The notes under the pieces: model-generated | What the model saw: the letters and a program-made list of their open reading frames with translations, nothing else | Databases searched by the model: none | What the model was told of the DNA's origin: nothing | Shown here: piece by piece, positions 8,767 to 60,972 of the stretch | Layout of the letters: each line of letters begins with the position of its first letter | Position numbering within the stretch: the first letter of the stretch is position 1 | From: a virus | Lineage: Duplodnaviria > Caudoviricetes | Direction: 5' to 3' (one strand) | IMG/VR virus record: IMGVR_UViG_3300042922_000736 | Coordinates: 1-63,835 of that record | DNA: 63,835 nucleotides | Translations under genes and position numbers: made by a program

Positions 8767-9599
8767 CAGAAGGCTCCGGTCTTAGCGTTTACCCACGCCT
8801 CAGCCATGGCGAGCGTGGATGGTGTCGTCGCAGCGCCACGAACGATAAGGGAATAAAGCCGGCCGGTGATTGGCGCGGAGGTTCCGGCACGGCGACCGAT
8901 ATAAAGGGGGTAGTTGCCGTAAGGTCCGGTCCCCTGGTCGCCCGTGGCAGCCGCACCTGCCACGCCATTGATGCGAACAAGGTTGGTATCGCCGGCAACA
9001 TCGGCCTGACAGGTGATCACGGCGGTGACGGGCGCCGCCCCAACGGATCGTGATGCGCTTACGTTCGTCGTGCCCCGACTGAAGAAGGTGGCGTTGGTGT
9101 TGGAGGCCGCCGGAGGGATCGCTAGCAGGAAGGCGCCGTTGTTGGATGTCGCGACGGCTGACAACTCGACCACGGCGCCGAACGCCGAGTCACTCAGTTT
9201 GCGATAGCCGACGAACACAGACATCTGCGACGTCGATGTAAAGTTGATGGCGCTGGTGACAAGGAAATCATCCAGCCCGTCAAACGCGAGATAGTACCGA
9301 CCGCTGCCGTCCTGCTGCAGCGTTGGCTTGAACGACGCGTTCGATTGCGCGGCGTGATGCCCGCGCCCCGATTTATCGAGGATGCGTCCGACCGCCTGTC
9401 CAACTGCAGTGACGGGCATCGTGCCGGCGTCGTCCTGGAACAGGGTAGAAAAGTCTGAGGGGTCGTACCAGGCGCCCTGCTGCCCAGATGCGAACAGCAC
9501 CGACGGCGTCCACCAGATGGTGCGTCCGGCACATCGCATCTCGAGCACGCTGAGGCCCGCGAGGCGGATTTCGTGCCCTACAGTAAGATCAACCTGCAT
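8766..9599 (-). CDS. Virion-associated beta-sandwich (LamG-like) protein
   Basis: [32 protein letters not shown]. Confidence 0.6.
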
Positions 9600-48058: not shown

Positions 48059-48853
48059 TCACGCCGCCTTTCGGCTCGTTGCAGCGGCGTTGTCGTTGGC
48101 CGCAGGGAAATACTTGGAAAGTTCGGCGAAGCCGGCGCCCTTCACGTAGCGCAGCGAGTCCGGCATGCTGAACCTGTTCTTGGCTACGAAGCCGGCGCCC
48201 TCCACGAGGTGGATCTGGCGCTCCTTGCCGCCCTCGGCGTGCGTGACGGTCTTCTTCGGCGCGACCTCTTTTTCCTTCAGCGTCACGCGGTAGTTCATGA
48301 ATGCCACCACGTCTGCCTGCTCGCGCACCAGGGCGTTTCCGCGCTTGTGCAGCTTGATCGTGTAACGGCTGTACGGGTCGGTCGTGGGCGAGTCGAAGCG
48401 CACGATTTCCGGGTGCGCCAGCTGCACCACGGCAATGCCGGCCTGCTGCAGTTCGCCCATGGCGGCAAGAAATTCCCGCCATTCGGCGTCGGCCTCGACA
48501 TAGCCGCGGCCATAGCCGGGCTCTTCGATCGACGACACGCCAAGCCGGGCACAGGTCGCCTTCCAGATCAGCCCCTCGAGTCCATCAAGCGAGTCGATGA
48601 TGACCGTCTTGAAGTCGTGCTGCTTATCGAGCAGTTCGCCTACGACGCTCCACAGGTCGTCTAGCGACTTGATCGTGCCGGGGGTCGGCATATCGACGGC
48701 CGACGGCGGGCGCTCGCCCTCGGTGGGCAGATAGACCGGGTCGGGCCATTCAGCGGCCAGGCTGGTCTTGCCGATGCCGTCGACGCCGTACAGCACGACG
48801 ATGGGCGGCTTGGTGCTCTTGCTGGATTTCAGCGAGGAAAGGGAGATTGCCAT
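48059..48853 (-). CDS. Sak4-like AAA_24 ATPase
   Basis: YGVDGIGKT, IIDSLD, GYGRGY, AKNR. Confidence 0.85.
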   Translation of the reverse strand: MAISLSSLKSSKSTKPPIVVLYGVDGIGKTSLAAEWPDPVYLPTEGERPPSAVDMPTPGTIKSLDDLWSVVGELLDKQHDFKTVIIDSLDGLEGLIWKATCARLGVSSIEEPGYGRGYVEADAEWREFLAAMGELQQAGIAVVQLAHPEIVRFDSPTTDPYSRYTIKLHKRGNALVREQADVVAFMNYRVTLKEKEVAPKKTVTHAEGGKERQIHLVEGAGFVAKNRFSMPDSLRYVKGAGFAELSKYFPAANDNAAATSRKAA

Positions 48854-49599
48854 GGGCTCAGTCCTCCACGTCGCTAGACGGCGTGGTCCAGAGCAGCCAG
48901 AACCACAGTCCAAGCGCGCCAATGCAGACCAGGTTGAGTGCGACTTCCCACATCACTGCACCGCCGTGGACGGACTCAGGGGGAAGTGGATGACGTTGGT
49001 GCCGACCGCCGAGCTCCGCAGCGCGGTCTCTGGCAGCTCGAACTGCGCCCCGTCGTAGGCACGGCGGATGGTGTAGAAGTCGTCGTATTCGGTGCGGTGC
49101 TGCTTAAGCACCGTGGCGAGGTCGCCGGTTTTCGCGATGCGCACGGCTTCGCCGAGCGCGAATCTGAATCCGCTCATCTCAATGTCCTGCGATGTCTGGT
49201 CTAGGCGGCTACGCTGGGCGCAGTGGCGCGCTGCAGCACGGCGGCGGGCAGCGGGATGTCGTTGTCGGGCGGTGTCGCCCGCGCCGGCAGCACGAAGCGC
49301 TCGTCTATGTACTTGTTGTATCGGTCGCCGGTCGGCTCGGTGCCGGTGATGCGGTAGGAGTAGCAGCCGTTGGCGTACTCGGTGACCGCGGTGACGCGCC
49401 CGCGGATCGCGGCGACGACCTCGTCGCCCATGTTGTACTTCGGTTCAGTCATATTGCCCCTATTCGCTGGGGTGAGCGGTGCCCGAAGGCGGCGTCGGCG
49501 CCGTCGTGCGGCACCCGGTAGTGCTGGGTAAGTAGTGTTCCGGCGCGAAAAACGCGCGTCGAAATCGTCGAGATGTGCCGCGCTGTGCACAGGTTTGGG

Positions 49600-50142: not shown

Positions 50143-50661
50143 ATGATGCCTGGGAAGAAGCGAACCGCTAAGCCCCTAGGCCAGCACTTCCTGCGGGAGT
50201 GGCGCCTATGGAAGAACGACCTTAGCCAGGCCGAGGTCGGGGCCGCTATTGGCATGACGCAGGGCGGATATCAGAAAATCGAGTCGAGTGAGAACCCCTA
50301 TAGCGAAATAGTTCTCGACGCGCTTGCGAGGTTCTACGGCTGCAGCCAAGGTGACTTGCTGTCTAGGAATCCCCTGAAGGGTGGCGAAACAGCAATCGAT
50401 TGGACGTCGGCCGGCAAGCGGCTCGAGATAATCCGGCGAGCTCTCTCGCCGGATCTAGCCTCGTACCTCATAGTCGACGACGGTGACTGGTTCTCCACTA
50501 TCAACAGCTATGGCGGAGACGTCCCATCCGGCGCGGCAATAAGGATTCACGCCGCAACCGGGCTGCCGATAAGGTTCATCATATCGGGAGCGACCGACGA
50601 ACTGTCCAAGGAGCAGATGGAATCCCTGTTGTCAGCCGCGCTCAATAGCAGGCCAGACTGA
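50143..50661 (+). CDS. XRE-family HTH regulator (repressor candidate)
   Basis: FLREWR..LSQAEVGAAIGMTQGGYQKIE. Confidence 0.85.
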   Translation: MMPGKKRTAKPLGQHFLREWRLWKNDLSQAEVGAAIGMTQGGYQKIESSENPYSEIVLDALARFYGCSQGDLLSRNPLKGGETAIDWTSAGKRLEIIRRALSPDLASYLIVDDGDWFSTINSYGGDVPSGAAIRIHAATGLPIRFIISGATDELSKEQMESLLSAALNSRPD

Positions 50662-50828
50662 CATGCGGCCTGGGACAGAAGCGCCTCATATAGGGCTGAC
50701 GTTGTCCGAAGGATTCTTCGGGCCGCCGCATCGTCCGGCGGCAACATCGCGCAGATCTTAGCGGCAACCTGCCGCTCCAGGCATTCTCTCACAGCCACAC
50801 CCGGCTGCATACCCGCACTAGCAACCAT
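50547..50828 (-). CDS. Small putative SOS-inducible protein
   Basis: ATG preceded by GAGGG and a LexA box; 3' end overlaps the XRE gene antisense. Confidence 0.5.
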   Translation of the reverse strand: MVASAGMQPGVAVRECLERQVAAKICAMLPPDDAAARRILRTTSALYEALLSQAACQSGLLLSAADNRDSICSLDSSSVAPDMMNLIGSPVAA

Positions 50829-50871
50829 AGCACTTTCCCTCTTTGCGTGCTCTGATAATACGCTGTGGCTG

Positions 50872-50886
50872 GAACAAAGCAAGAAC
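50872..50886. promoter_or_regulatory. Alphaproteobacterial LexA box
   Basis: GAAC-AAAGCAA-GAAC. Confidence 0.7.
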
Positions 50887-51046
50887 ATTTTCCTAACGTA
50901 GGGAAAGTTTTCCGCAACCAGTGTGGGGCTGACGGGGCTTCCGTTCTTTGTGAGGTAATGTCCGCGCAATCGGACGCGCCTAGCATGTGAACGCTAGCGC
51001 ATAAAATTTTGTTTATCAACGTACGTATTTTGTCGGACTTAGAATA

Positions 51047-51547
51047 ATGACAGAGTCCAAGCAGCTGATGCAGCGCATAGAGCAACGTATTGCTGCGCTT
51101 GGCATTTCTCGTCGATCGGCGGCGGTTCGGGCCGGCCTTTCTGAGAATGCCCTCAACGTAATGCGGTCAAAAATAGACAGTGGCGGACATCACCGACCTC
51201 GCGTCGACACCATTCGCGCCCTAGCTCCGGTGTTGCACACTACCGTCGAGTGGCTTCTCGACGGAAAGGGACCGGAGGTCGTTATGCCAGATACACTTCC
51301 TGCCGCGCCTCAGCCAACAAAGCGGCCCAAGAATGCCAGGGGTGACATCGACGCCCATATGGATGCAATTGTGGGGGCCGTATTTGCGGTCGGTGTCGAG
51401 CTCGGCATGGAGATAACCCCAACACGGCTGGCCCGCGTGGTGCGAGATCCTCGAATATCGATCGATATCGAATCGGACGAGGAGATGGAAGCGGCAGTGA
51501 CCATCTTGAAGATGCGGATTCGCCGGCGTCTCACGGCAATGAAGTAG
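51047..51547 (+). CDS. Second XRE-family HTH regulator
   Basis: ISRRSAAVRAGLSEN...PRVDTIRALA..L.TTVEWLLDG. Confidence 0.85.
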   Translation: MTESKQLMQRIEQRIAALGISRRSAAVRAGLSENALNVMRSKIDSGGHHRPRVDTIRALAPVLHTTVEWLLDGKGPEVVMPDTLPAAPQPTKRPKNARGDIDAHMDAIVGAVFAVGVELGMEITPTRLARVVRDPRISIDIESDEEMEAAVTILKMRIRRRLTAMK

Positions 51548-51680
51548 GTCCGCGACGTCCATAGAAGCCCCGCCACGGCTGGAATGAATCTTGACCAGAT
51601 TCACCACTATTGACAGGAATAATCTTGACGGTCATTATGCCCCTCAACACCGGCAGAGTCGCCGGCCAGAGGAGAGCAAG

Positions 51681-54040
51681 ATGCAGACCTCGAACGGAAA
51701 CGCAGGCAGACCGAGCAGTGCCGACATCGCCTACGGCCGGTCGCCCCTGGCGCCGGAAGCCGACCGCCTACGCGCCACGGCGCGCTGGAACGTCAAGGCC
51801 GCCGCCGAAGCCAGGCGCAAGCGCCGTCACGCCGATGAAGTCCGCTACCGCCTGAACGCCACTAAGTGCGACACCCGCCGTGCCGAGCTTCTGGCGATGC
51901 GCGAGCCGCTGCGGAGTGCAGCGTGATGACCGCGCACAACGAGACGAAGGCGGGGCACACGCCGGGGCCGTGGTCGGTAAAGCGTGGCGAGGGTCGCTAT
52001 AGCGACCAACTCTATGTTGAGAGCAATATCCACTCCACACCGACCGTCATCAGCGGCAAAGATCAAATCGTCCAGCTTACGAGCTTTCGAGATGATCACG
52101 GGCGGGAGGTTGAAGCCAACGCTCGCCTGATCGCCGCCAGCCCTTCGCTGTTCGACTACGTGGCCCGCAAGGCCAGCGAAGGCGACCCAGAAGCAGTCAA
52201 GCTTGTGGAGGCGGTTACCGCCGCCCGCGCCACCTCGGAGGCCGTGTGATGGCCGGGTTCCTTGGGGCAAGTCTGGCCGCTGCTGCCGCTGAGATGGTCT
52301 TTCTCGGCCGCTGGATCGACGCTGCCGAATACGGGGCAATCCAGTCCCGCCAAGCGCGGAAGCGTCGTCGCGAAAAGATCGACCGCCGCATTCCGAACCA
52401 TCGGAAGAAGGGTCCCGGTCGCAAGCACCTGTCTGGCGACTTCACGGGCGAAACCAACACGCGGGGGTGGAAATGACCTCCCCCACGACCACGACCGTTG
52501 AAGTCCTCCAGAAGGCAAGGGCGTTCCTCATCGTCGCTTCTGACGGCACAGAGATGGTGTTCACGAACGAGGAAGATGCGCAGCGAAAAGCTGATGCACT
52601 CGGCCTCGAATATCACGGGCTGTATTTGCGGGCTGCCGCCGGTCTGCTGGCTGACCACCGCGAAGCCCTAATAGACCATCTCTGTAGAGAATTTGTCTCT
52701 GTCTACGATTGCGTTCGTGTGTGGGAGGCCTGGTCTGTTGGCACCATGTCCAAGGACGACTTTAGGCCTTTGGAGGATCGCGTCGAGCAGATAGCGGATG
52801 ACATCCTCGACCTTATGGACCGCGCCATCGACCTCGCCAAGCGGGAGGCGGTGTGAGCCATGTCGGATCTGGTTGATAAGCTGAACGCTGAGGCCGCCGC
52901 CATTGCAAAGGGTGGCCCACTCTGGAGTGGCGAAACGGAGCGGCTAATTCTGGAGGCCGCCGCCGAACTCACCCGCCTCCGCTCGCTGAATGCGGAGTTG
53001 GTGGAGGCGATCCAACTAGTCCGATCCATCATCGTCGATGGCGCCACGACTGGCTTCAATTGCCACGACGGGGATTGGGCTGAGCGCCTGTACACGTCAC
53101 AGGCCGTCACGCACCGCGCCCTCGCCCGCGCCAACGGAGGCGGCACGCCATGACCGCGCACGCCAGGACCACCACACTCACCACTCGAGCACGCCGCGAA
53201 GCTGAACGGCTCGACGTCGAAACCAACGCCAGGTTCGAAGGCGTGTCCACCGAGGCGGCGACGCTCCTGCGCCAGCTTGCCAATGAGGTGGAGCGGCTGG
53301 AGGCGGAGATCGCCGCCGCCATGAACCAGCAAGCACTGCAACCCGTAGGGCTGTGAAGATGACCTACACCCTCATCATCGACGGCGCGCCGCTTTCGCCC
53401 ACGTCGCTACTGCAGGCCGACGCCATATGGCAGGCCGCACTGGTCACGGGCCGCCGCGTATCGCTCATTGCCAAGCGCGAGAGATAGCCATGCACACGAT
53501 AAGGAAGCTGGCGAGCACGGCCAAGATCGTTGCCACGCTCACCATGGCACGGACGTTCGGGCAGTACGAACACACCGTGTGGAACGGCGATTTCACCTAC
53601 GCTCAATACCGCTGGCGCGGCCAGTCATGGGCGATCCCGACCTCCGCCATGGAGGATCTGCCATGACCCTCATCATGCTCATCTGCCTAGCCGGCGCGCC
53701 GGACCAGTGCCGCACGGAACAGGTGCCGACCGAGGCAGTCATGCCGATGCAGTGCGCCATGGCCGCCCAGGAGTGGGCCGCAGAACATCCTCGCTACGTG
53801 CTGGCGAAGTTTCGCTGCGGCAGGCGTGTGGTGGAGATTTGAGCCATGGGAAAGCACGAGATGGCCGTAACCACTGCCCGGCTGCTCGCCGCGCAACTCC
53901 GTAGTGCGGAGCGCCGGGCCGAGCGGTACGAGGCGGCGCTGCGGGCGATTGCGGTGATGCAGAACCCTACCGAGATGCGCCGCGTAGCGACCGACGCAGT
54001 GTCGGCGGACAGCCACAAGGCCGCCGCCTACCCCAATTAG
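51681..54040 (+). other. Run of short, translationally coupled early hypothetical genes
   Basis: ORFs such as 51681-51926, 51926-52249 (HTPGPW...ANARLIAA), 52467-52856, 52860-53153, 53150-53356, 53846-54040. Confidence 0.6.
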
Positions 54041-54186
54041 CCGGGGACTCCAAGCTGCTCCAACCGGCGAGTGGACTAGTCCGTGATCGCGACTGCAGAA
54101 GTCGTGGCGGCCCGGCGTAGAGCATTTGCCCGCCACTAATCACGGAAAGCCGGAATTACTACCCAACCGGAGTATCGCAACACCCA

Positions 54187-54498
54187 TTGACTGGTCGGTG
54201 CCGGAACGAGAGCGCACCCCATAAGCCGCCAGCCCGTCCAGTCAACCCTACGCGAAGGCGGCCAGAGCCAGTGTGCACCCCATGAGCACGACGCCGCCTT
54301 CGCAACTGCATTCAACCGGCCGGCCGGAGGGCAAACGCACCCCGATAGAGTACCGCCGGTCGGTTGAACCACTTCGAGAGACGCGGGCCAGTGAGAGCTC
54401 GCACCCCAGCGCAAGAACGCCCGCGTCTCTCGTCACCCCATCGGAAGGCCGGGCCATTCGAAATCCGAACGCCAAGTGCACAGCGCCCGTGCCTTCCG
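54187..54498 (+). ncRNA. Stem-loop dual-spacer (TIGR-like) array, block 1: 5 units
   Basis: Units 54187-54245, 54252-54303, 54311-54368, 54375-54432, 54442-54498; each is a hairpin around CCR-N9-YG-N4-CCR-N9-(C/A)G. Confidence 0.85.
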
Positions 54499-54520
54499 CC
54501 CCTAACCAGAGGAGAACATC

Positions 54521-55141
54521 ATGAGCCTCGCCCACGACTTCAACCCGCCCCGCAGACACACCCGATACGCCAAAGCCGAGACACTTATCGGCGTAGCGGA
54601 GCGCATGATGCGCGAAGCCAGCGGTGACGTCGACGCCGCCACTGAGAAGATGACGAACTACGTCCTGAACAAGAAGCGCCTCACGGAAGAGGCGGTGCGG
54701 ATGGCGTGCCGCAACATGCTCGGCGAGACCGTCCGCAGCGAACGCCGCACGATCGATACCCTCATGGCCGACCCCGGCGCTACCGGCCCGAAGGCGACGG
54801 CTAGCAAGTCGAAGTCCTACCAGGAGCGCGTCGCGCACATCTTCAGCGGCAGCGCGGAAGCAACCCGCCTGCGGCTGTCGAGCCTCGGCCAGCACGTCCG
54901 CGAGGCGCTGCTCGACAAGCCCTATGTCATCGACGGCATCCGTCGCCCGCTGCGAGACCACATCGGCGCGGACATCGTGAAGTACGCCGGCGAGCACCTG
55001 AGCAAGGGCCAGACCATGGTACGCGAAGCCAGGTTCCTCATCGCCATCGGCAACACGGCCGGAAACCGCAAGGTCGGTGACGCCGTGTCCGCCGAGGAAG
55101 CCATTCGCCTCCGTATTGAGGCCGACAAGACGCCGGTGTGA
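54521..55141 (+). CDS. Uncharacterised protein between array blocks
   Basis: 206-aa ORF with GAGGAG ribosome-binding site; no family recognised. Confidence 0.75.
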   Translation: MSLAHDFNPPRRHTRYAKAETLIGVAERMMREASGDVDAATEKMTNYVLNKKRLTEEAVRMACRNMLGETVRSERRTIDTLMADPGATGPKATASKSKSYQERVAHIFSGSAEATRLRLSSLGQHVREALLDKPYVIDGIRRPLRDHIGADIVKYAGEHLSKGQTMVREARFLIAIGNTAGNRKVGDAVSAEEAIRLRIEADKTPV

Positions 55142-55148
55142 GCCGGCA

Positions 55149-55736
55149 GGGGCGGGCCAGCCGGGCTTCGTATCCCATGAAAGAAACGCCCGCCCCGAAC
55201 CTTTTGCATGTGGTGGCCAATAGAACTTCGCACCCCACGAGCGCTGTGCCGCTACATGCAACCCCACCCGCCGCAAGGCGGTGCCTGCCGGGCCAGCAGG
55301 CCGCCGCACCCCATCCACCAGACGCCCGGCAGGCAACCAATACCGAACGGCAGGGGCCAAGGGCACCGCGTATCCCAGGCTGGCACCGCCCCGCCGTTCG
55401 GTTCCTAACGTGAGTGGTGGCGGCCACTGTGCACACGCACCCCATCGGTCGCTCGCCGCCGCCACTCACAACCCATTCCGCCGGCCAAGCGAGACATGCA
55501 CCCCATTCCGTCCGCGCCGGCACGCAACCCAGGACAAACGCCATGTACTCCGAAATTAGCAACAACCCCGCCGAGATTGCCGCCGCCACGACCCGGCGCC
55601 GGCCCCGTAAAGCTGACGGTGCGGCCACTTCTGCAGCGCGACCCATAAATAGGACGCCCGCCGTCAGCCCCCCTATCGACGAAACCGTGGCCGACGGTCA
55701 TGCGCACCCCTATGGAACAGCGCCCGGTTTCGTCGA
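55149..55736 (+). ncRNA. TIGR-like array, block 2: 6 units plus 2 inside the next ORF's 5' end
   Basis: Units 55149-55196, 55204-55261, 55282-55335, 55342-55402, 55410-55469, 55480-55521, 55612-55668, 55676-55736. Confidence 0.85.
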
Positions 55737-56577
55737 CCCCGATTGCACGCCGACCTACGTGCCGACCGAGGCCGTCACGGACCTAGTCGCGCAGATACGC
55801 AACATGCACAAGCTGCGGCAGGGGATGATACGGGCCAAGAACCGCATCGTGCTGCAGGGCATGGCGTGCGTTCGGCACGCGATCCACCAGCCCGAAGACT
55901 ACGAGAACGACGCCACCAAGAAGGCGCTGCGTGAGCGCGCCGACAAGATGTACCGCGAAGCTGCGGCCGACGAGGGCCATCAGTTCCACCCCAACATCAA
56001 GCCGTACTTGATGGCCGCTGCTCCGCTGGAAGAAGCCGCAGAGACCTACGCCAAGCGACTCGAGAAGCTGGCCAAGCAGTTGCCGGTCTTCGCATGGGTG
56101 CAGTCCGTCAAGGGGCTCGGCACGGTCAGCTTCGCGACCATCGTCGGCGAGGCTGGAGACATCGGCACCTACCGCGGGCCGGAGGGGCTGTGGAAGCGCA
56201 TGGGGCTAGCCGTCATCGGTGGCAAGGCGCAGGGCAGGCCCGGCGCGGGGGCCACGTCGGAAGACTGGATAGCCCACGGCTACAGCGGCGAGCGCCGTTC
56301 TGTGGCGTGGAACGCCCGCAACGGTCTCATCTTGGGCATGGGCCGCTGGCGCCCCGCGTTCGGTGAGGATGTCGACGCAAACCCTGAACTGACGCCGTAT
56401 CAGCGGCTGTTCGCGAAGCGCGCCAGGCTCGAGTGCGAGAAGCTCGGCAAGCCGGTGACTGAGGCGAAGACGGGCAAGGAGTCCTACAGCGCCCACGCCA
56501 TCGCACGGGCCATGAGGTTCGTCGAAAAAAGGATGCTCAAGGAGCTCTATCTGAATTGGCGCCGGGCTTCGGCCTGA
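55543..56577 (+). CDS. IS110/Nop-like RNA-binding protein without a nuclease domain (TasA-like)
   Basis: Coiled coil plus VKGLGTVSFATIVGEAGD...LWKRMGL, similar to the IS110 C-terminal/Nop region; no DEDD RuvC domain, no catalytic SG loop; start may lie further downstream. Confidence 0.75.
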   Translation: MYSEISNNPAEIAAATTRRRPRKADGAATSAARPINRTPAVSPPIDETVADGHAHPYGTAPGFVDPDCTPTYVPTEAVTDLVAQIRNMHKLRQGMIRAKNRIVLQGMACVRHAIHQPEDYENDATKKALRERADKMYREAAADEGHQFHPNIKPYLMAAAPLEEAAETYAKRLEKLAKQLPVFAWVQSVKGLGTVSFATIVGEAGDIGTYRGPEGLWKRMGLAVIGGKAQGRPGAGATSEDWIAHGYSGERRSVAWNARNGLILGMGRWRPAFGEDVDANPELTPYQRLFAKRARLECEKLGKPVTEAKTGKESYSAHAIARAMRFVEKRMLKELYLNWRRASA

Positions 56578-56582
56578 AGCCC

Positions 56583-56754
56583 GGCGGGGCCAGCGTAGAG
56601 CCGCACCCCAGAGGTAGCGCGCCCCGCCAACCCCCATTGCCTGCCGGGGCCGAAAAACGTCCGCACCCCATCCATGTTGCGTCACGGCAGGCAACCCTAA
56701 GCGACGACGGGCCACCGCTCTCGCGTATCCCACTCCCGGAGCGCCCGTCGTCGC
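56583..56754 (+). ncRNA. TIGR-like array, block 3: 3 units
   Basis: Units 56583-56628, 56637-56694, 56701-56754. Confidence 0.85.
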
Positions 56755-56779
56755 CCACCCCATCCAGAGGTCACACACC

Positions 56780-57637
56780 ATGACCACCCTATCCCAAGTC
56801 ATCACTACCGCGCCCGACGGGCTCCGTCCCTTCCTGCAGTTCGTCGAGCGCCGCGGCAACAACGACAACGACATGCGCGCCTCGACGCCGCTGCTGTTCG
56901 CGACGTATGCCCCGCCTAATGCGCCTGCACTGAGAGTCAGAGTCGTCACCGCGTCCAAGCTCGGACGCATCGGCATCACGGAATGCCTGCACGAGGAAAC
57001 CACGCCGCAGATTTACGTGCCGGCGGCGCAGCTGTCGCAATTCCTCCCGACGCCGTACCCCATGCGCAAGAAGGTGCGCCGGCCTCGCGGAACGCCCACG
57101 CAGCGGATCCACGCCGAAGCGCGAGTCGATGCGGCGCAGAGGACAGCGGCTCTGATGGAGCAGTTTTCTGTGGACTGCGCCGAGGTAGCGCGTCGCATCG
57201 CTAGCGCTTCCGGCATCCCGATAACACATCTATTCGGGGCGTCGCGCGAGAGACTGCTTACCTGCGCCAGACGTTCCGCCTTGGGGGTGATCGCCTCCAG
57301 AAACCACGGCCTGTCGCTGCCAGTCTTGGGGCGCGCCATCGGCTGTCATCACACCACAACGCTGCACAGCCTTCGGGAAATAGGCCTGCACGCCTCCGTA
57401 ACTGGCGAGTTCGACCTGCCGTACCTGCGGGCGCTGTGGCTCAAGGGGCGAATGCCGATCGGCCATGAGCCGGGGCAGATGCCGGATGACGTAGCCGCCC
57501 GGCTTGGGCGGTTCGTCACGATCGACGGCGGCGAGCTCGAGCCGAGCAACTGGACAGAATTCCGGCGCTACCTCGGCCTCGCCATTGCGCGGGCCAGGAT
57601 CGTCGCCGAGCGGGAGAGACTGCAATGCGCAGCCTGA
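56780..57637 (+). CDS. Protein with DnaA C-terminal-like HTH domain
   Basis: SRERLLTCARR...LSLPVLGRAIGCHHTTTLHS resembles DnaA domain IV. Confidence 0.7.
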   Translation: MTTLSQVITTAPDGLRPFLQFVERRGNNDNDMRASTPLLFATYAPPNAPALRVRVVTASKLGRIGITECLHEETTPQIYVPAAQLSQFLPTPYPMRKKVRRPRGTPTQRIHAEARVDAAQRTAALMEQFSVDCAEVARRIASASGIPITHLFGASRERLLTCARRSALGVIASRNHGLSLPVLGRAIGCHHTTTLHSLREIGLHASVTGEFDLPYLRALWLKGRMPIGHEPGQMPDDVAARLGRFVTIDGGELEPSNWTEFRRYLGLAIARARIVAERERLQCAA

Positions 57638-57754
57638 TGTCTGATTTGATGGAATGGCTGTACGCGCTGTGGCGCGCGGCTTGGCAGCGCCAGGCTGGAG
57701 AGTTCTACGGAGAGCTTGAGTACGACCCTGATGCGGGGCGGGAGGGGCTTCGCC

Positions 57755-58483
57755 ATGGCTCGTGAAATTGTGCAGCCCGTCACCGTGCCGAGTGGTGAGG
57801 AATGGCGGAACGAGACCAAGACGACGCATCCGGCCTATGCGCAGGTGCGCGCCTCCCGTGTGTCCGGCAGCACCAATCTGTACGGCAGCGATTTCCGCCA
57901 CAACCACTTCATGACGATATCGATCCGCACCAGCGAGTTGCGGCGGACGCTAAGCCGCGACTGGCACTATGGCCGTGAAGAGCTAATCGAGATCGCCCTG
58001 AGCGAAAGCCAGTGGGCCACGTTTGTCTCGTCCCCCAACATGGGGGATGGCGTTCCCTGCACCTTGCAGCGACTTAACGGGCAGATGGTCCCCGGCCTTC
58101 CCGACCCCGAGAGCCGTGCTGACCAGTTCTCAGCAGAGATCAAATCCAAGCTCGACAAGACCGTAGCTCGAGTAAAGGAAACTCTCTCGCGCATCGACGA
58201 TATGGGCATGCCCAAGGGGAAGACGCGCGAGCTGAAGGAGGGCCTTGAACACCTGCTAACCGAACTTCGGTCGAACCTGCCGTTCGTCGCCAAGCAGTTC
58301 GAAGAGCATGTTGAGGACACTGTCGAGGCAGCCAAGCAGGAAGTGCACGGCTACATGACTGCCGTCTTGCAGCGTGCCGGCGTCGAAGCGCTTGCGGCGA
58401 ACATGCCACTCCAGATCGAGCACAAAGACTCCCCCGCCGGCCGTGAAGCCCTATCAGCAGCGGAGGGACGGGCCGATGCCTGA
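57755..58483 (+). CDS. Hypothetical phage protein
   Basis: HPAY, LYGSD, LSESQWATFVSS..GVPCTL. Confidence 0.65.
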   Translation: MAREIVQPVTVPSGEEWRNETKTTHPAYAQVRASRVSGSTNLYGSDFRHNHFMTISIRTSELRRTLSRDWHYGREELIEIALSESQWATFVSSPNMGDGVPCTLQRLNGQMVPGLPDPESRADQFSAEIKSKLDKTVARVKETLSRIDDMGMPKGKTRELKEGLEHLLTELRSNLPFVAKQFEEHVEDTVEAAKQEVHGYMTAVLQRAGVEALAANMPLQIEHKDSPAGREALSAAEGRADA

Positions 58484-59183
58484 CATCTCCGCCATGAAAG
58501 AAATGCTGGCGCGCGTCGAGAGCGCAACGGGGCCGGATCGGGAATTGGATGCACGACTTTCCGTTCTCTTCGGCGTCATCGTCATGAAGGACCGTGGGAA
58601 GGAAGGAATTTCCTTCTTCGAGGCTCCGATTGAACCGGGCCAGTGGGCTTTTCTTAGTGGCTGCAAGACCGGCGAGGCTGATGCCTACCGTGAGCTTGGA
58701 ACGTGCCTCGGCGTGCCCGGATACACGCGCAGCCTCGACGCCTGCGTCGCGCTGATCGAGAAGGTGCTGCCGGGGTGGAACGGTATGGTCGACTTCGGTG
58801 GTGGTTCCACATGCACCGCCGACCTAATCGGCCCTGTCGTGGAAGTCGGATCTGACGAGGAAGGGTATCCGTTCGATATCCGCGATGAGGCTCATGGCGA
58901 AGGCAAGACCCCGCCGCTCGCCCTTCTCGCAGCCACGCTCCGCGCCCTCCTCCAGATCGAAGAGCGCAAGGCGGGGGGGAGAGGGGCAATGAGCTATTCC
59001 TTCTTTAGCCGCTCCCTGCGCTTTATCTCGCGCTCGATAGCCTCGCGGATCATGTCCAAGCGCGGTTCACCATCCGCCAGCACGGCGTCGATGCGGGCCG
59101 TTGTGCCCTCCGCGAGCGGCAACCGAAGCTGCTCCGTCCATTCCTTTTTGCGCCCCATGCGGCGAGACGTAGCGTGTACATGA
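58476..59183 (+). CDS. Phage early protein (ATGPDRELD/YTRSLDA type)
   Basis: Common phage motif pair; 3' part overlaps the RHH gene antisense. Confidence 0.6.
   Translation: MPDISAMKEMLARVESATGPDRELDARLSVLFGVIVMKDRGKEGISFFEAPIEPGQWAFLSGCKTGEADAYRELGTCLGVPGYTRSLDACVALIEKVLPGWNGMVDFGGGSTCTADLIGPVVEVGSDEEGYPFDIRDEAHGEGKTPPLALLAATLRALLQIEERKAGGRGAMSYSFFSRSLRFISRSIASRIMSKRGSPSASTASMRAVVPSASGNRSCSVHSFLRPMRRDVACT
58994..59158 (-). CDS. Ribbon-helix-helix regulator
   Basis: LRLPL beta strand followed by RIDAVL...RLDMIREAIERE. Confidence 0.7.
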   Translation of the reverse strand: MGRKKEWTEQLRLPLAEGTTARIDAVLADGEPRLDMIREAIEREIKRRERLKKE

Positions 59184-59267
59184 ATTTCTGTCAAAACGGC
59201 ACCTTTTCGTGTACATGATATTGACACCGTATCAGGTACACGATAAAACTTCAATCAGGTACACGAT
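59173..59267. promoter_or_regulatory. Divergent promoter region with four GTACAYGA repeats
   Basis: CGTGTACATGA x2, ATCAGGTACACGAT x2, TTGACA at 59221. Confidence 0.6.
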
Positions 59268-59886
59268 TGGAGACGCAGAAATGAGCACGCACCAAATCAC
59301 CTGCACGATCGCCGGCAAGAGCTTCAGCGTCAAGGAGAGCAACGGAAAGTTCTTCTACTGGTCGCCGAAAGCTCTCCGTTGGCTCCCTATCCGAAAAGAG
59401 AAGGTGGTGGCGTGATGTACGTACTCGACACAGATCCCAACAAGCTCGGGAATGGTGACATTTGCATCAGAACCGACAAAGGCACGCTTGTGGCGCTCAT
59501 TTACTCAAGGTTCCCTCCGCACGAAAACACTCGCGTGGCCCAAATTATGGTTGATGCCCTCAACTCTACTTTCTTCCCCAGTCACACAGATCTGATGGTT
59601 TCACCGGAATCGATTGGCAAGTGGCTTGAGGAAAACCCGCTGCCCGAAGACAGGAGCCATGAGCAGCCTTGATCGCATCCACCCCCGCCTCGCGCTTGCG
59701 CAGAAGGATTCCCAGGGGTGACCAAGCTTTGCGAGTTCTGCGGCGCCTATTCCCCGCGCCAGTGCGAGTTGCGGAACGAAACGGACGGTGTCTGCCCGTG
59801 GGAAGAAATCCTCGAGGACGAGCCCGACCCCGATCTTTTGCGTGAGCAGCGCGACGACATGCGCCGGCTTTTCGGAGATGACCGCT

Positions 59887-60972
59887 ATGACGACTGAAGA
59901 CACCCAGGAGGGGGGCCCATGCCCCGATCCGGCCGCCTATGACACTGGTAACTGCTGCTGCGGCAAGTGTTTCCCAGCCATGACCCAGACTGACGCGCAT
60001 GTCGATCCGGTGCGGGTGGCGCGCCGTTGGTACGCGGATAAGTTCGTCTGCAATGAAGAGGTGGTGATGTCCGGCAAGGAGGATCGCACCCCCTACCTTG
60101 CGGGAGCGATCGCAGGCGCCCGCGCCATGCAGGCCGCCACAGCCGGCGGGGCGGTGAAGGTCAAGGACTGGCTCCAAGTCGCTAGGTTGGCGGGCGAACA
60201 CGGTATCCGGTATCGGACCAACAGGGCGCTTGAGCGCTTCCTGTCCGATACCCTCTCCGCCCTCGAACCCGCCACCGCCACCGAGCAGGAGGGGGCGGCG
60301 TCTCCCGGCAAGTGGGATCACCGCTACCGGCCGCTGGCGACCGGTGAGATCATCGAAGCTGGCGACGAATGCCTTACCGACAGTCACCTAGGATGGCACC
60401 CCGCCAAGCACTGCATTGGCGAGCCGGCGCCTGATCCCGCGTACACCTCGCACCGCATGTATCGCCGGCTGAAGCAGCCCACCCCCGCGCCAGAGCCGGG
60501 GAGCGTCGAGGGGCCGGTGGCTCCCGACCTAGACAAGTTTTATGATCGTGAGGCCATCAGGGGGAAGCTCAACAAGCTGGCCAGTGATATTGCCCACAGC
60601 GCCTTGAAAATATCCTGGTGGAACACAGAGACAGCAGCTCGGCGCGTGGCAGAAGAAGCCGCTGAGTGGATATTTCACCTTTTCAAGGAGAACAAGGATC
60701 AATCCCTCGCCCTCACCACCCTACAGCAGCAGCTCGCCGCCAAGGATGCCGAGGCGTCTTTTTGGGAGCGTGCGTATAGCCGCCGGACGGGTCAAGCCAT
60801 CGAAGCCCGCGCCCGCGCCACCGCAGCCGAGGCCGAGTGCGCGAAGCTGAGGGAGGCGCTAGGCCTTGCTCGCCCGCATGTGGCCAATGCCGCAGCTCGT
60901 AACCAGTTTGCACGCGGCAGGCTTGAGCGCATTGACGCCCTCGCGGCCAAGAGCGCGGGAGGCGGGGAATGA
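59887..60972 (+). CDS. Mosaic hypothetical phage protein
   Basis: Long ORF in early operon orientation with coiled-coil C-terminus. Confidence 0.55.
   Translation: MTTEDTQEGGPCPDPAAYDTGNCCCGKCFPAMTQTDAHVDPVRVARRWYADKFVCNEEVVMSGKEDRTPYLAGAIAGARAMQAATAGGAVKVKDWLQVARLAGEHGIRYRTNRALERFLSDTLSALEPATATEQEGAASPGKWDHRYRPLATGEIIEAGDECLTDSHLGWHPAKHCIGEPAPDPAYTSHRMYRRLKQPTPAPEPGSVEGPVAPDLDKFYDREAIRGKLNKLASDIAHSALKISWWNTETAARRVAEEAAEWIFHLFKENKDQSLALTTLQQQLAAKDAEASFWERAYSRRTGQAIEARARATAAEAECAKLREALGLARPHVANAAARNQFARGRLERIDALAAKSAGGGE

Follow-up and report, generated by a model that had tools for sequence, protein, structure and literature searches.

The window analyzed here, i.e., the whole of a complete linear viral record of 63,835 bp (IMG/VR record IMGVR_UViG_3300042922_000736; CheckV completeness 100), carries a TIGR-TasA locus in which a 206-aa gene of no known family (54521-55141, + strand) lies between two blocks of stem-loop guide units and directly upstream of a tasA-like gene (55543-56577, + strand). 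TIGR-Tas systems were described in 2025 and raise the questions of what the nuclease-less TasA does in nature, how stem-loop guide RNAs (tigRNAs) mature, and whether TasA acts alone. The original prediction, made from the letters of the window, cast the 206-aa gene as a candidate partner or effector of the TasA-like protein. We found that the fast-evolving family to which its product belongs stands with tasA in 59-67 of 80 related phage loci, making it a testable candidate for a missing component of these systems.

The open reading frame (ORF) listing gives the ATG at 54521 as the first start codon of the 206-aa frame, and a Shine-Dalgarno-like AGAGGAGA, read from the sequence at 54508-54515 (+ strand), places AGGAG (54510-54514) 6 nt before it. 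Unit 5 of the upstream guide block consists of a 32-nt core (54454-54485) and a 3' stem arm (54486-54498) and therefore ends 22 nt before the ATG, while the 5' stem arm of unit 6 starts at 55149, 7 nt past the stop codon, which ends at 55141. Unit and ORF coordinates thus agree exactly with the spacing first claimed for the gene (22 bp after unit 5 and 7 bp before unit 6). A word-indexed search with the 206-aa protein yielded four relatives from 1366 candidates (55-96% identity), one of them a hypothetical protein of Ancylobacter polymorphus. Exhaustive HMMER searching of 1.84 billion proteins gave 29 representative relatives at E<=1e-3; 21 of them passed <=1e-10 and four <=1e-30, and the relatives align over the full length of the protein. 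Pattern scans of genome and metagenome contig collections with the protein or its alignments returned no relative, nor did a single-protein scan or a scan with alignment A1 of viral contigs, or tblastn against GenBank phages and PLSDB plasmids. In the first 30 printed pairs of family genes from related loci (60-97% protein identity), dS was saturated in one pair, and the other 29 gave a ratio of nonsynonymous to synonymous substitution rates (dN/dS) of 0.027-0.284. These values resemble those of tasA in the same pairs. The 206-aa ORF is a real gene under purifying selection, beyond a chance open frame. In what follows we refer to four further alignments, namely A2 (29 family sequences), A3 (11 family sequences), A4 (a four-sequence TasA profile), and A5 (49 TasA rows).

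The downstream gene (55543-56577, its ATG at 55543 inferred from an alignment of orthologues) encodes a 344-aa protein that matched the NCBIfam model NF052498 (TIGR_Tas_endo, 'TIGR-Tas system RNA-guided endonuclease') over residues 127-340 with E=6e-19; its score of 68.9 bits falls short of the curated threshold of 100. Weaker matches were to IS110 models. The IS110 model aligned only from its position 117 onward, and the catalytic domain of the transposase would presumably lie before that position. No nuclease domain was detected in the 344-aa protein with Pfam, PHROG, NCBIfam, or PADLOC. Profile A4 gave a single match in the PDB, to chain A of 9MTY (E=1.3e-6), the TasR ribonucleoprotein (RNP) of Faure 2025. 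Since the protein matches both NF052498 and 9MTY and has no detectable nuclease domain, it is, judged by these similarities, a Nop-type Tas protein of the TasA type.

The ~70 N-terminal residues of TasA are poorly conserved save for a short motif. In the orthologues this motif has the consensus NPAEI.A (within 55543-55620, residues 1-26, of the window); at least 90% of the 49 sequences keep P9, and a basic stretch and ~60 unconserved residues follow the motif. The motif resembles a docking peptide and could be a contact point for a partner. Every source-given name among the 120 TasA homologues listed of 566 was 'hypothetical protein'. Homologues assigned to named organisms came from Ancylobacter, Mesorhizobium, Brucella anthropi, Brucella rhizosphaerae, Rhizobium, and Aquamicrobium. 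Ancylobacter belongs to the Hyphomicrobiales by its taxonomy, and we take the other genera to belong there too. The TasA search gave one match among GenBank phages and none among PLSDB plasmids.

Fifteen stem-loop units were resolved around these two genes, 14 of them intergenic in three blocks and one within the coding region of tasA, all on the + strand. Sub-array 1 (54189-54498) holds units 1-5, with cores starting at 54201, 54262, 54324, 54388, and 54454; here unit 1 is degenerate, and a bulge interrupts the unit 5 stem. Sub-array 2 (55145-55528) holds units 6-11 (cores from 55157, 55217, 55293, 55357, 55424, and 55485), and sub-array 3 (56578-56755) holds units 12-14 (cores from 56590, 56650, and 56712). 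The intragenic unit (55679-55734; core from 55691, CCG-N9-CG-CACC-CCT-N9-CG) covers about codons 46-64, i.e., the poorly conserved N-terminal region of tasA, and keeps the reading frame. Intragenic units have been described for other stem-loop systems (Xu 2026 preprint, bioRxiv 2026.08.11.744272).

All units follow the layout stem, CCA/CCG, 9 nt, CG/TG, 4 nt, CCA, 9 nt, CG, stem. The first box is CCA but CCG in four units, the second CCA is replaced once by CCG and once by CCT, and the final CG is replaced once by TG and once by AG; the four bases between the boxes are CACC in 11 units, TATC in three, and AACG in one. The loop is 9 nt long (CGCACCCCA or CGTATCCCA), which is also the modal loop length reported (Xu 2026 preprint). 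According to the methods of that preprint, a stem-loop TIGR has box C as CCA, CGA, CTA, or CAA and box D as TG or CG (the TIGRFinder sets), 14-nt intervals with at most 15 nt between them, and a stem that is 5 bp or longer. All four box motifs fell within the published sets in 11 of the 15 units, and the remaining four had CCG, CCT, or AG at one or two box positions. Stems were 5-14 bp long in the 11 units scored automatically. Their sequences vary from unit to unit while complementarity is kept: in the 15-unit alignment 76% of cells pair vs. 51% in shuffles, and the stem covariation score was 0.587 vs. 0.192 +/- 0.034 in shuffles, with 0 of 500 shuffles reaching 0.587. When the 3' partners were slid by 1-3 columns, covariation dropped to 0.10-0.21. 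Rfam gave no match at E<=1 within 53500-57500. The published definition fits, and on these sequence features the units are a stem-loop TIGR array.

Between 54240 and 56700, the 3' stem arm ends in CAACC or CAA in units 1, 3, 7, 8, 11, 12, and 13, the 5' arms opening with the complementary TTG. The CUU motif that has been reported for processing at the base of stems may have its local equivalent in these ends, but CTT itself does not occur consistently in the window's units.

The locus is thus of the known stem-loop TIGR-TasA kind. It shares with the systems described from a Peromyscus leucopus gut, Bifidobacterium longum, and Minisyncoccota (Faure 2025; Xu 2026 preprint) a nuclease-less Nop-type Tas, two 9-nt spacers, box C CCA, box D CG/TG, a 9-nt loop, variable palindromic stems, and sub-arrays on both sides of tas with one unit in the coding region. 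Unlike those systems, as far as the accessible text of these sources describes them, the window and most of its relatives have a second conserved gene between the sub-arrays, directly upstream of tasA, and this gene is what is new here. The gene shares its strand with the units and with tasA and is separated from the units by short gaps. Between 54040 and 56780 we found no promoter-like site and no terminator-like site on the + strand, all listed terminator-like sites lying on the - strand and their total being no higher than in shuffles. Co-transcription with the guides, as the original prediction had supposed, is therefore plausible from this arrangement.

To measure the linkage of the two genes, profiles were run on six-frame ORFs of TasA-seeded loci, namely the best 80 of 109 TasA relatives in IMG/VR. 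With the A2 profile a family member was found beside tasA in 59 of the 80 loci, including all 35 of the closest ones. All 59 matches were on the tasA strand, 58 upstream and one downstream (L030), and in the upstream cases 51-968 bp separate the stop of the family ORF from the point where the TasA match starts. A profile iterated for three rounds raised the count to 67 of 80. The eight added matches all share the tasA strand and lie upstream of the gene. Seven of them stop 238-780 bp short of tasA, and the envelope of the remaining one (L059) overlaps the TasA match. Their placement argues against profile drift. Over the 67 loci the order is therefore upstream in 65, upstream with overlapping envelopes in one, and downstream in one. 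Starting from the family instead, three sub-alignments gathered 3, 14, and 6 loci. In all 23 a TasA-like gene shares the strand of the family member, and the TasA-seeded 80 do not include four of the contigs. The four closest family homologues and four close TasA homologues lie on contigs of equal size (62580, 4391718, 26075, and 4364 bp).

As a control, 15 other genes of the window (50143-60972) were searched with phmmer and recurred in only 0-2 of the 80 loci, whereas in the same test the 206-aa protein, used as a single sequence, was found in 24 and TasA in all 80. The pair persists to about 30% TasA identity. Since the pair recurs while its neighbors are replaced, the family and tasA form a discrete module of two genes that turns up in many phage contexts with no other relation to one another. 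Guide units accompany the module: a unit scanner placed them between partner and tasA in 45 of the 58 upstream-arranged loci, and inside the partner ORF in one. The original prediction had asked whether homologues co-occur with TasA-like genes and arrays or mostly lie apart from arrays, and both counts come down on the side of co-occurrence. Fused forms of the partner were not found among longer proteins, which is weak evidence, and none of the 120 listed TasA homologues carries the domain.

These counts also bear on the view that the gene is an unrelated passenger, kept by block inheritance or enclosed as guide units spread into surrounding intergenic regions. Its interaction with TasA is, after all, a prediction from sequence, the placing of units is known to be flexible and to extend into tas genes themselves (Xu 2026 preprint; here 55679-55734), and 13 of the 80 loci have no detectable member. 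We regard such a passenger as quite unlikely, considering that the pair outlasts TasA divergence to the extent given above while all 15 neighbors tested are replaced, that the family was always found with tasA (23/23), and that strand and order are almost invariant (67/67 on the tasA strand).

The pair is also present in an isolated phage with a host on record, Rhizobium phage RHph_X2_25 on Sinorhizobium americanum. In its genome (MW960032.1, locus L085, 23652-25718) the family member (QWY83252.1, E=6.8e-20) and the TasA-like protein (QWY83253.1) are both annotated as hypothetical proteins, units occur in the gap that separates the pair and where tasA starts in the annotation, and the module lies between a repressor C gene and an opposite-strand XRE-type gene. 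In this phage, which offers a system for experiments, the module probably has its own promoter. Its position could suit a protein that regulates or antagonizes TasA or the array, by sequestering TasA, protecting phage DNA, or regulating transcription of the locus. Such a protein would show the same conserved linkage to tasA, and it would often evolve faster than its target, as seen here in a mean pairwise identity of 24% for the 206-aa family vs. 42% for TasA; moreover, the RHph_X2_25 module is flanked by two divergent repressor-type genes and the window module lies downstream of two XRE-type regulators. Against this, no helix-turn-helix or other regulator family was detected in the 206-aa protein, and the order of partner then tasA, with units between, looks more like that of a co-expressed component. 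A regulator or antagonist therefore seems unlikely to us.

The 206-aa protein is basic (isoelectric point 9.74) and matched no Pfam, PHROG, NCBIfam, or PADLOC family. Its full-length AlphaFold2 model, made with a 29-row alignment, reached a mean predicted local distance difference test score (pLDDT) of 83.4 and has helices at 22-32, 37-50, and 52-83, followed by a Lys/Ser/Pro-rich and poorly predicted linker (84-109). The C-terminal half is modeled as a helix (110-131), a beta-hairpin (134-143), a long helix (149-180), and two short helices to 203; folded alone, this domain gave the same elements (pLDDT 85.8). The model thus suggests two domains, a helical UBA-like N-terminal domain (22-83) and a conserved C-terminal domain (110-203) with Arg-rich helices, joined by a disordered linker (84-109). 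The UBA-like character comes from a stretch at ~22-50: UBA_HYPK was weakly matched in the N-terminal bundle by four of 29 members (best E=5e-4), and single members matched UBA_4, UBA_8, or UBA_At5g58720 in Pfam, while the window's own protein had no UBA match. The conserved part is the C-terminal half, where the family consensus runs from ALLD.PY to RL..EA. Alignment A3 shows no variation at R118 and R171 and almost none at R64, R75, and R168, and most of its invariant or nearly invariant positions are Gly, Ala, Leu, or Arg; in A2 only L144, G149, and G181 hold throughout.

Structural comparison added little. Foldseek found nothing in the PDB at E<=0.001, and a sequence-profile search of the PDB gave rows only at E>=0.42. 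A wide VIA-align search gave a best Z of 6.0, below the level that the tool itself treats as meaningful, for the EB1-like domain of Mal3 (root-mean-square deviation about 7 Å), followed by generic helical hairpins; a TasH chain ranked 28th (Z 5.0), level with unrelated rows. Among the predicted structures of BFVD, the best neighbors of the full-length model were uncharacterized proteins of 166-226 aa, from the Mycobacterium phages Rich and Omega and from three further viral entries, with Foldseek E-values of 1.3e-3 to 4.5e-2 (1.3e-3 to 9e-3 for Rich and Omega), all above the bar of E<=0.001, probabilities of 0.85-1.00, a best template-modeling score of 0.56, and 9-15% sequence identity. Two candidate identities were rejected. 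A language model proposed phage lambda replication protein P (PF06992) and scored 0.75 on the complete protein and 0.84 on its C-domain, against a bar of 0.9; PF06992 was found in a lambda P control (6.4e-62) and not in the C-domain or the RHph_X2_25 homologue at E<=10, and hhalign gave a probability of 0.13%. A relation to TasA itself received an hhalign probability of 0.10%.

These features speak against the enzymatic half of the original prediction, by which the protein would supply the catalytic effector, or the tigRNA-processing nuclease, of the nuclease-less TasA. In favor of such an activity, no nuclease domain is seen in TasA, no nuclease has been reported to process stem-loop tigRNAs, a step that flanking sequence aids (Xu 2026 preprint), and Faure 2025 could not identify the processing RNase. 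The 206-aa family, however, offers no conserved Asp/Glu/His constellation: the invariant or nearly invariant columns of A3 hold no His and no Glu, and their sole Asp is D36 of the N-terminal UBA-like GD motif. No nuclease family (Pfam, PHROG, NCBIfam, PADLOC) was found for the 29 members save one lone RuvC-like PHROG match at E=0.0043, and the predicted fold is helical with one beta-hairpin, its best structural matches being generic helical hairpins with Z<=6.0. We consider a catalytic role very unlikely. What stands of the original prediction is the partner, a conserved companion of tasA and the units.

The one accessory gene of tasA that we found in print is ParB-like. Faure 2025 describes TasA without clear protein associations apart from occasional ParB-like genes, and tasParB is such an accessory gene, operonic with tasA in dual-repeat loci. 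The window resembles those loci in having an accessory gene operonic with tasA and arrays upstream, downstream, and between, and one may ask whether the 206-aa protein is a very divergent tasParB. Its arrays, unlike theirs, are of the stem-loop kind with variable palindromic stems rather than dual-repeat with edge and loop repeats, and a protein of 206 residues in two helical domains shows no ParB signature in sequence or predicted fold. None of the 29 members matched a Pfam ParB family at E<=1, and hhalign against one putative ParB-like ORF (locus L049), so labeled from a reading of its sequence, gave a probability of 0.12%. No ParB chain was among the matches listed in four PDB fold searches, the sole ParB-named row being at rank 20 in a viral structure library (E=1.6, probability 0.06). 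The ParB/Srx domain is alpha/beta, whereas the model is almost all-helical. From these comparisons with ParB families, one ParB-like ORF, and solved folds, we consider a divergent tasParB very unlikely.

Neither preprint points to a comparable protein: the text of the Xu 2026 preprint has no mention of ParB or of accessory or neighboring genes, and that of the PlTasA/SpTasH preprint mentions neither ParB nor an operon and uses 'accessory' once, for protein hairpin elements. We found no non-ParB accessory protein of TasA in the papers searched, although the supplements of Faure 2025 or TIGRSafari may already list the gene. The neighborhood survey in Faure 2025 clustered genes at 50% identity, and since the mean pairwise identity of the 206-aa family is only 24%, we infer that the family may have escaped it.

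Taken together, we lean, by a little more than even chances, toward the 206-aa gene encoding a non-enzymatic accessory protein that is dedicated to the stem-loop TIGR-TasA system of a temperate-type phage of Hyphomicrobiales. The best reading of the locus is correspondingly a two-gene variant of stem-loop TIGR-TasA, found in Hyphomicrobiales phages and defined by this protein, the co-occurrence described above supporting a partner role as far as genomic linkage can. In the mechanism that we propose, the protein would be translated from the primary transcript that also gives rise to the tigRNAs and would act on the TasA ribonucleoprotein as a bipartite adaptor. Its N-terminal UBA-like three-helix bundle would contact protein, and its basic C-domain, with the conserved arginines, would contact nucleic acid, either the variable stems of the pre-tigRNAs or target DNA. 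The outcome might be that assembly and maturation of the stem-loop tigRNP are helped, or that a TasA repression complex is stabilized on DNA, the protein itself cutting no nucleic acid. Such roles can be set beside reports that stem-loop units are processed at the base of their stems, a step improved by flanking sequence, and that TasA guided to a gene represses its transcription, i.e., acts as an RNA-guided repressor (Xu 2026 preprint); Faure 2025 describes the processing RNase as not identified and the role of TasA as unclear.

Several observations weigh against this accessory role. The role is predicted from sequence and linkage, and contact with nucleic acid is suggested by charge and conserved arginines only, because no known RNA- or DNA-binding fold or family was matched. 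Stem-loop TasA systems bind and repress DNA with no accessory protein reported in the available text (Xu 2026 preprint; PlTasA/SpTasH preprint). With the iterated profile, 13 of the 80 TasA-like loci still have no detected family member. At least one of these (L049) ends too near tasA to show a whole upstream gene, and most others have an unassigned + strand ORF of ~190-215 aa at the equivalent position, so the family is either more divergent there or dispensable. Divergence of partner and TasA is correlated (Pearson 0.71, 1596 pairs), which is expected of any linked genes and is no proof of interaction. Complex prediction with TasA (A5) and the partner (A2) scored 0.00 in both runs; made without controls, it counts neither way.

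A stronger version of the partner role can be drawn by analogy. A Nop-domain scaffold on a box C/D guide RNA works with small dedicated partners, L7Ae and fibrillarin. The comparison with the box C/D small nucleolar ribonucleoprotein (snoRNP) was made in Faure 2025. The 206-aa protein might, like the Nop partners, be an obligatory second subunit that binds stems or the RNP, defining a two-component stem-loop TIGR-TasA subtype. It would then be needed to fold, mature, or load the long, variable pre-tigRNAs, a step at which stem-loop Tas proteins have no Y/H catalytic loop of their own. The likeness is one of function only, as the partner is helical and no resemblance to L7Ae or a methyltransferase appeared in any family or fold search. 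We hold this version to be possible and well short of probable. If it is true, these phage TasA proteins would be unable to carry out RNA-guided repression in their native host without the 206-aa protein. If the protein is required, heterologous TasA tools of this clade (repressors, activators) might also work better with it.

To look for what the system is aimed at, the guides were searched as composite sites, with spacer A beside the reverse complement of spacer B in both orders and with gaps of 0-6, a geometry that is our reading of Faure 2025. At <=2 mismatches nothing came up in the window but a trivial overlap of unit 4 with itself and a single site with 2 mismatches at 9509, where ~0.5 sites would be expected by chance as a rough estimate; two unit cores were out of register in that scan. 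With corrected cores, the 15 guides found only trivial overlap at <=1 mismatch in the window and all fetched loci. Since no convincing target was found in the phage's own genome or the fetched loci, other DNA is, under the assumed geometry, the more likely aim of the system than self-regulation or the phage's own origin.

Some TasA-like loci differ in their units. In L073, L074, L076, and L078-L081 the loops are 13 nt long and hold a small hairpin (e.g., GCC-GCAA-GGC), matching the 'extended loop' clades described (Xu 2026 preprint). In these loci the partner was undetected in L076 and L078-L080 and was recovered only with the iterated profile in L073, L074, and L081.

As for the surroundings in the window, two XRE/CI-type helix-turn-helix regulators (50143-50661 and 51047-51547, + strand; PHROG transcriptional repressor/regulator families) lie upstream of the module, and a Sak4-like single-stranded DNA annealing protein (8.4e-42) is encoded at 48059-48922 on the - strand. 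Because these genes are nearby, the TIGR-TasA module appears to lie in an early or regulatory region of the phage. Right after sub-array 3, a 285-aa gene (56780-57637) has a DnaA C-terminal helix-turn-helix (Pfam Bac_DnaA_C, 2.3e-5; NCBIfam DnaA, 2.6e-4), both matches falling under the cut-off; its product is probably a phage replication-initiation or DNA-binding protein, and the gene stood beside tasA in none of the 80 loci. Lastly, a 405-aa antisense ORF (54248-55465, - strand) overlaps the entire 206-aa gene. We take it for a spurious long frame of the sort common in G+C-rich DNA; the selection measured by dN/dS was seen in the + strand frame of the 206-aa gene that it overlaps.

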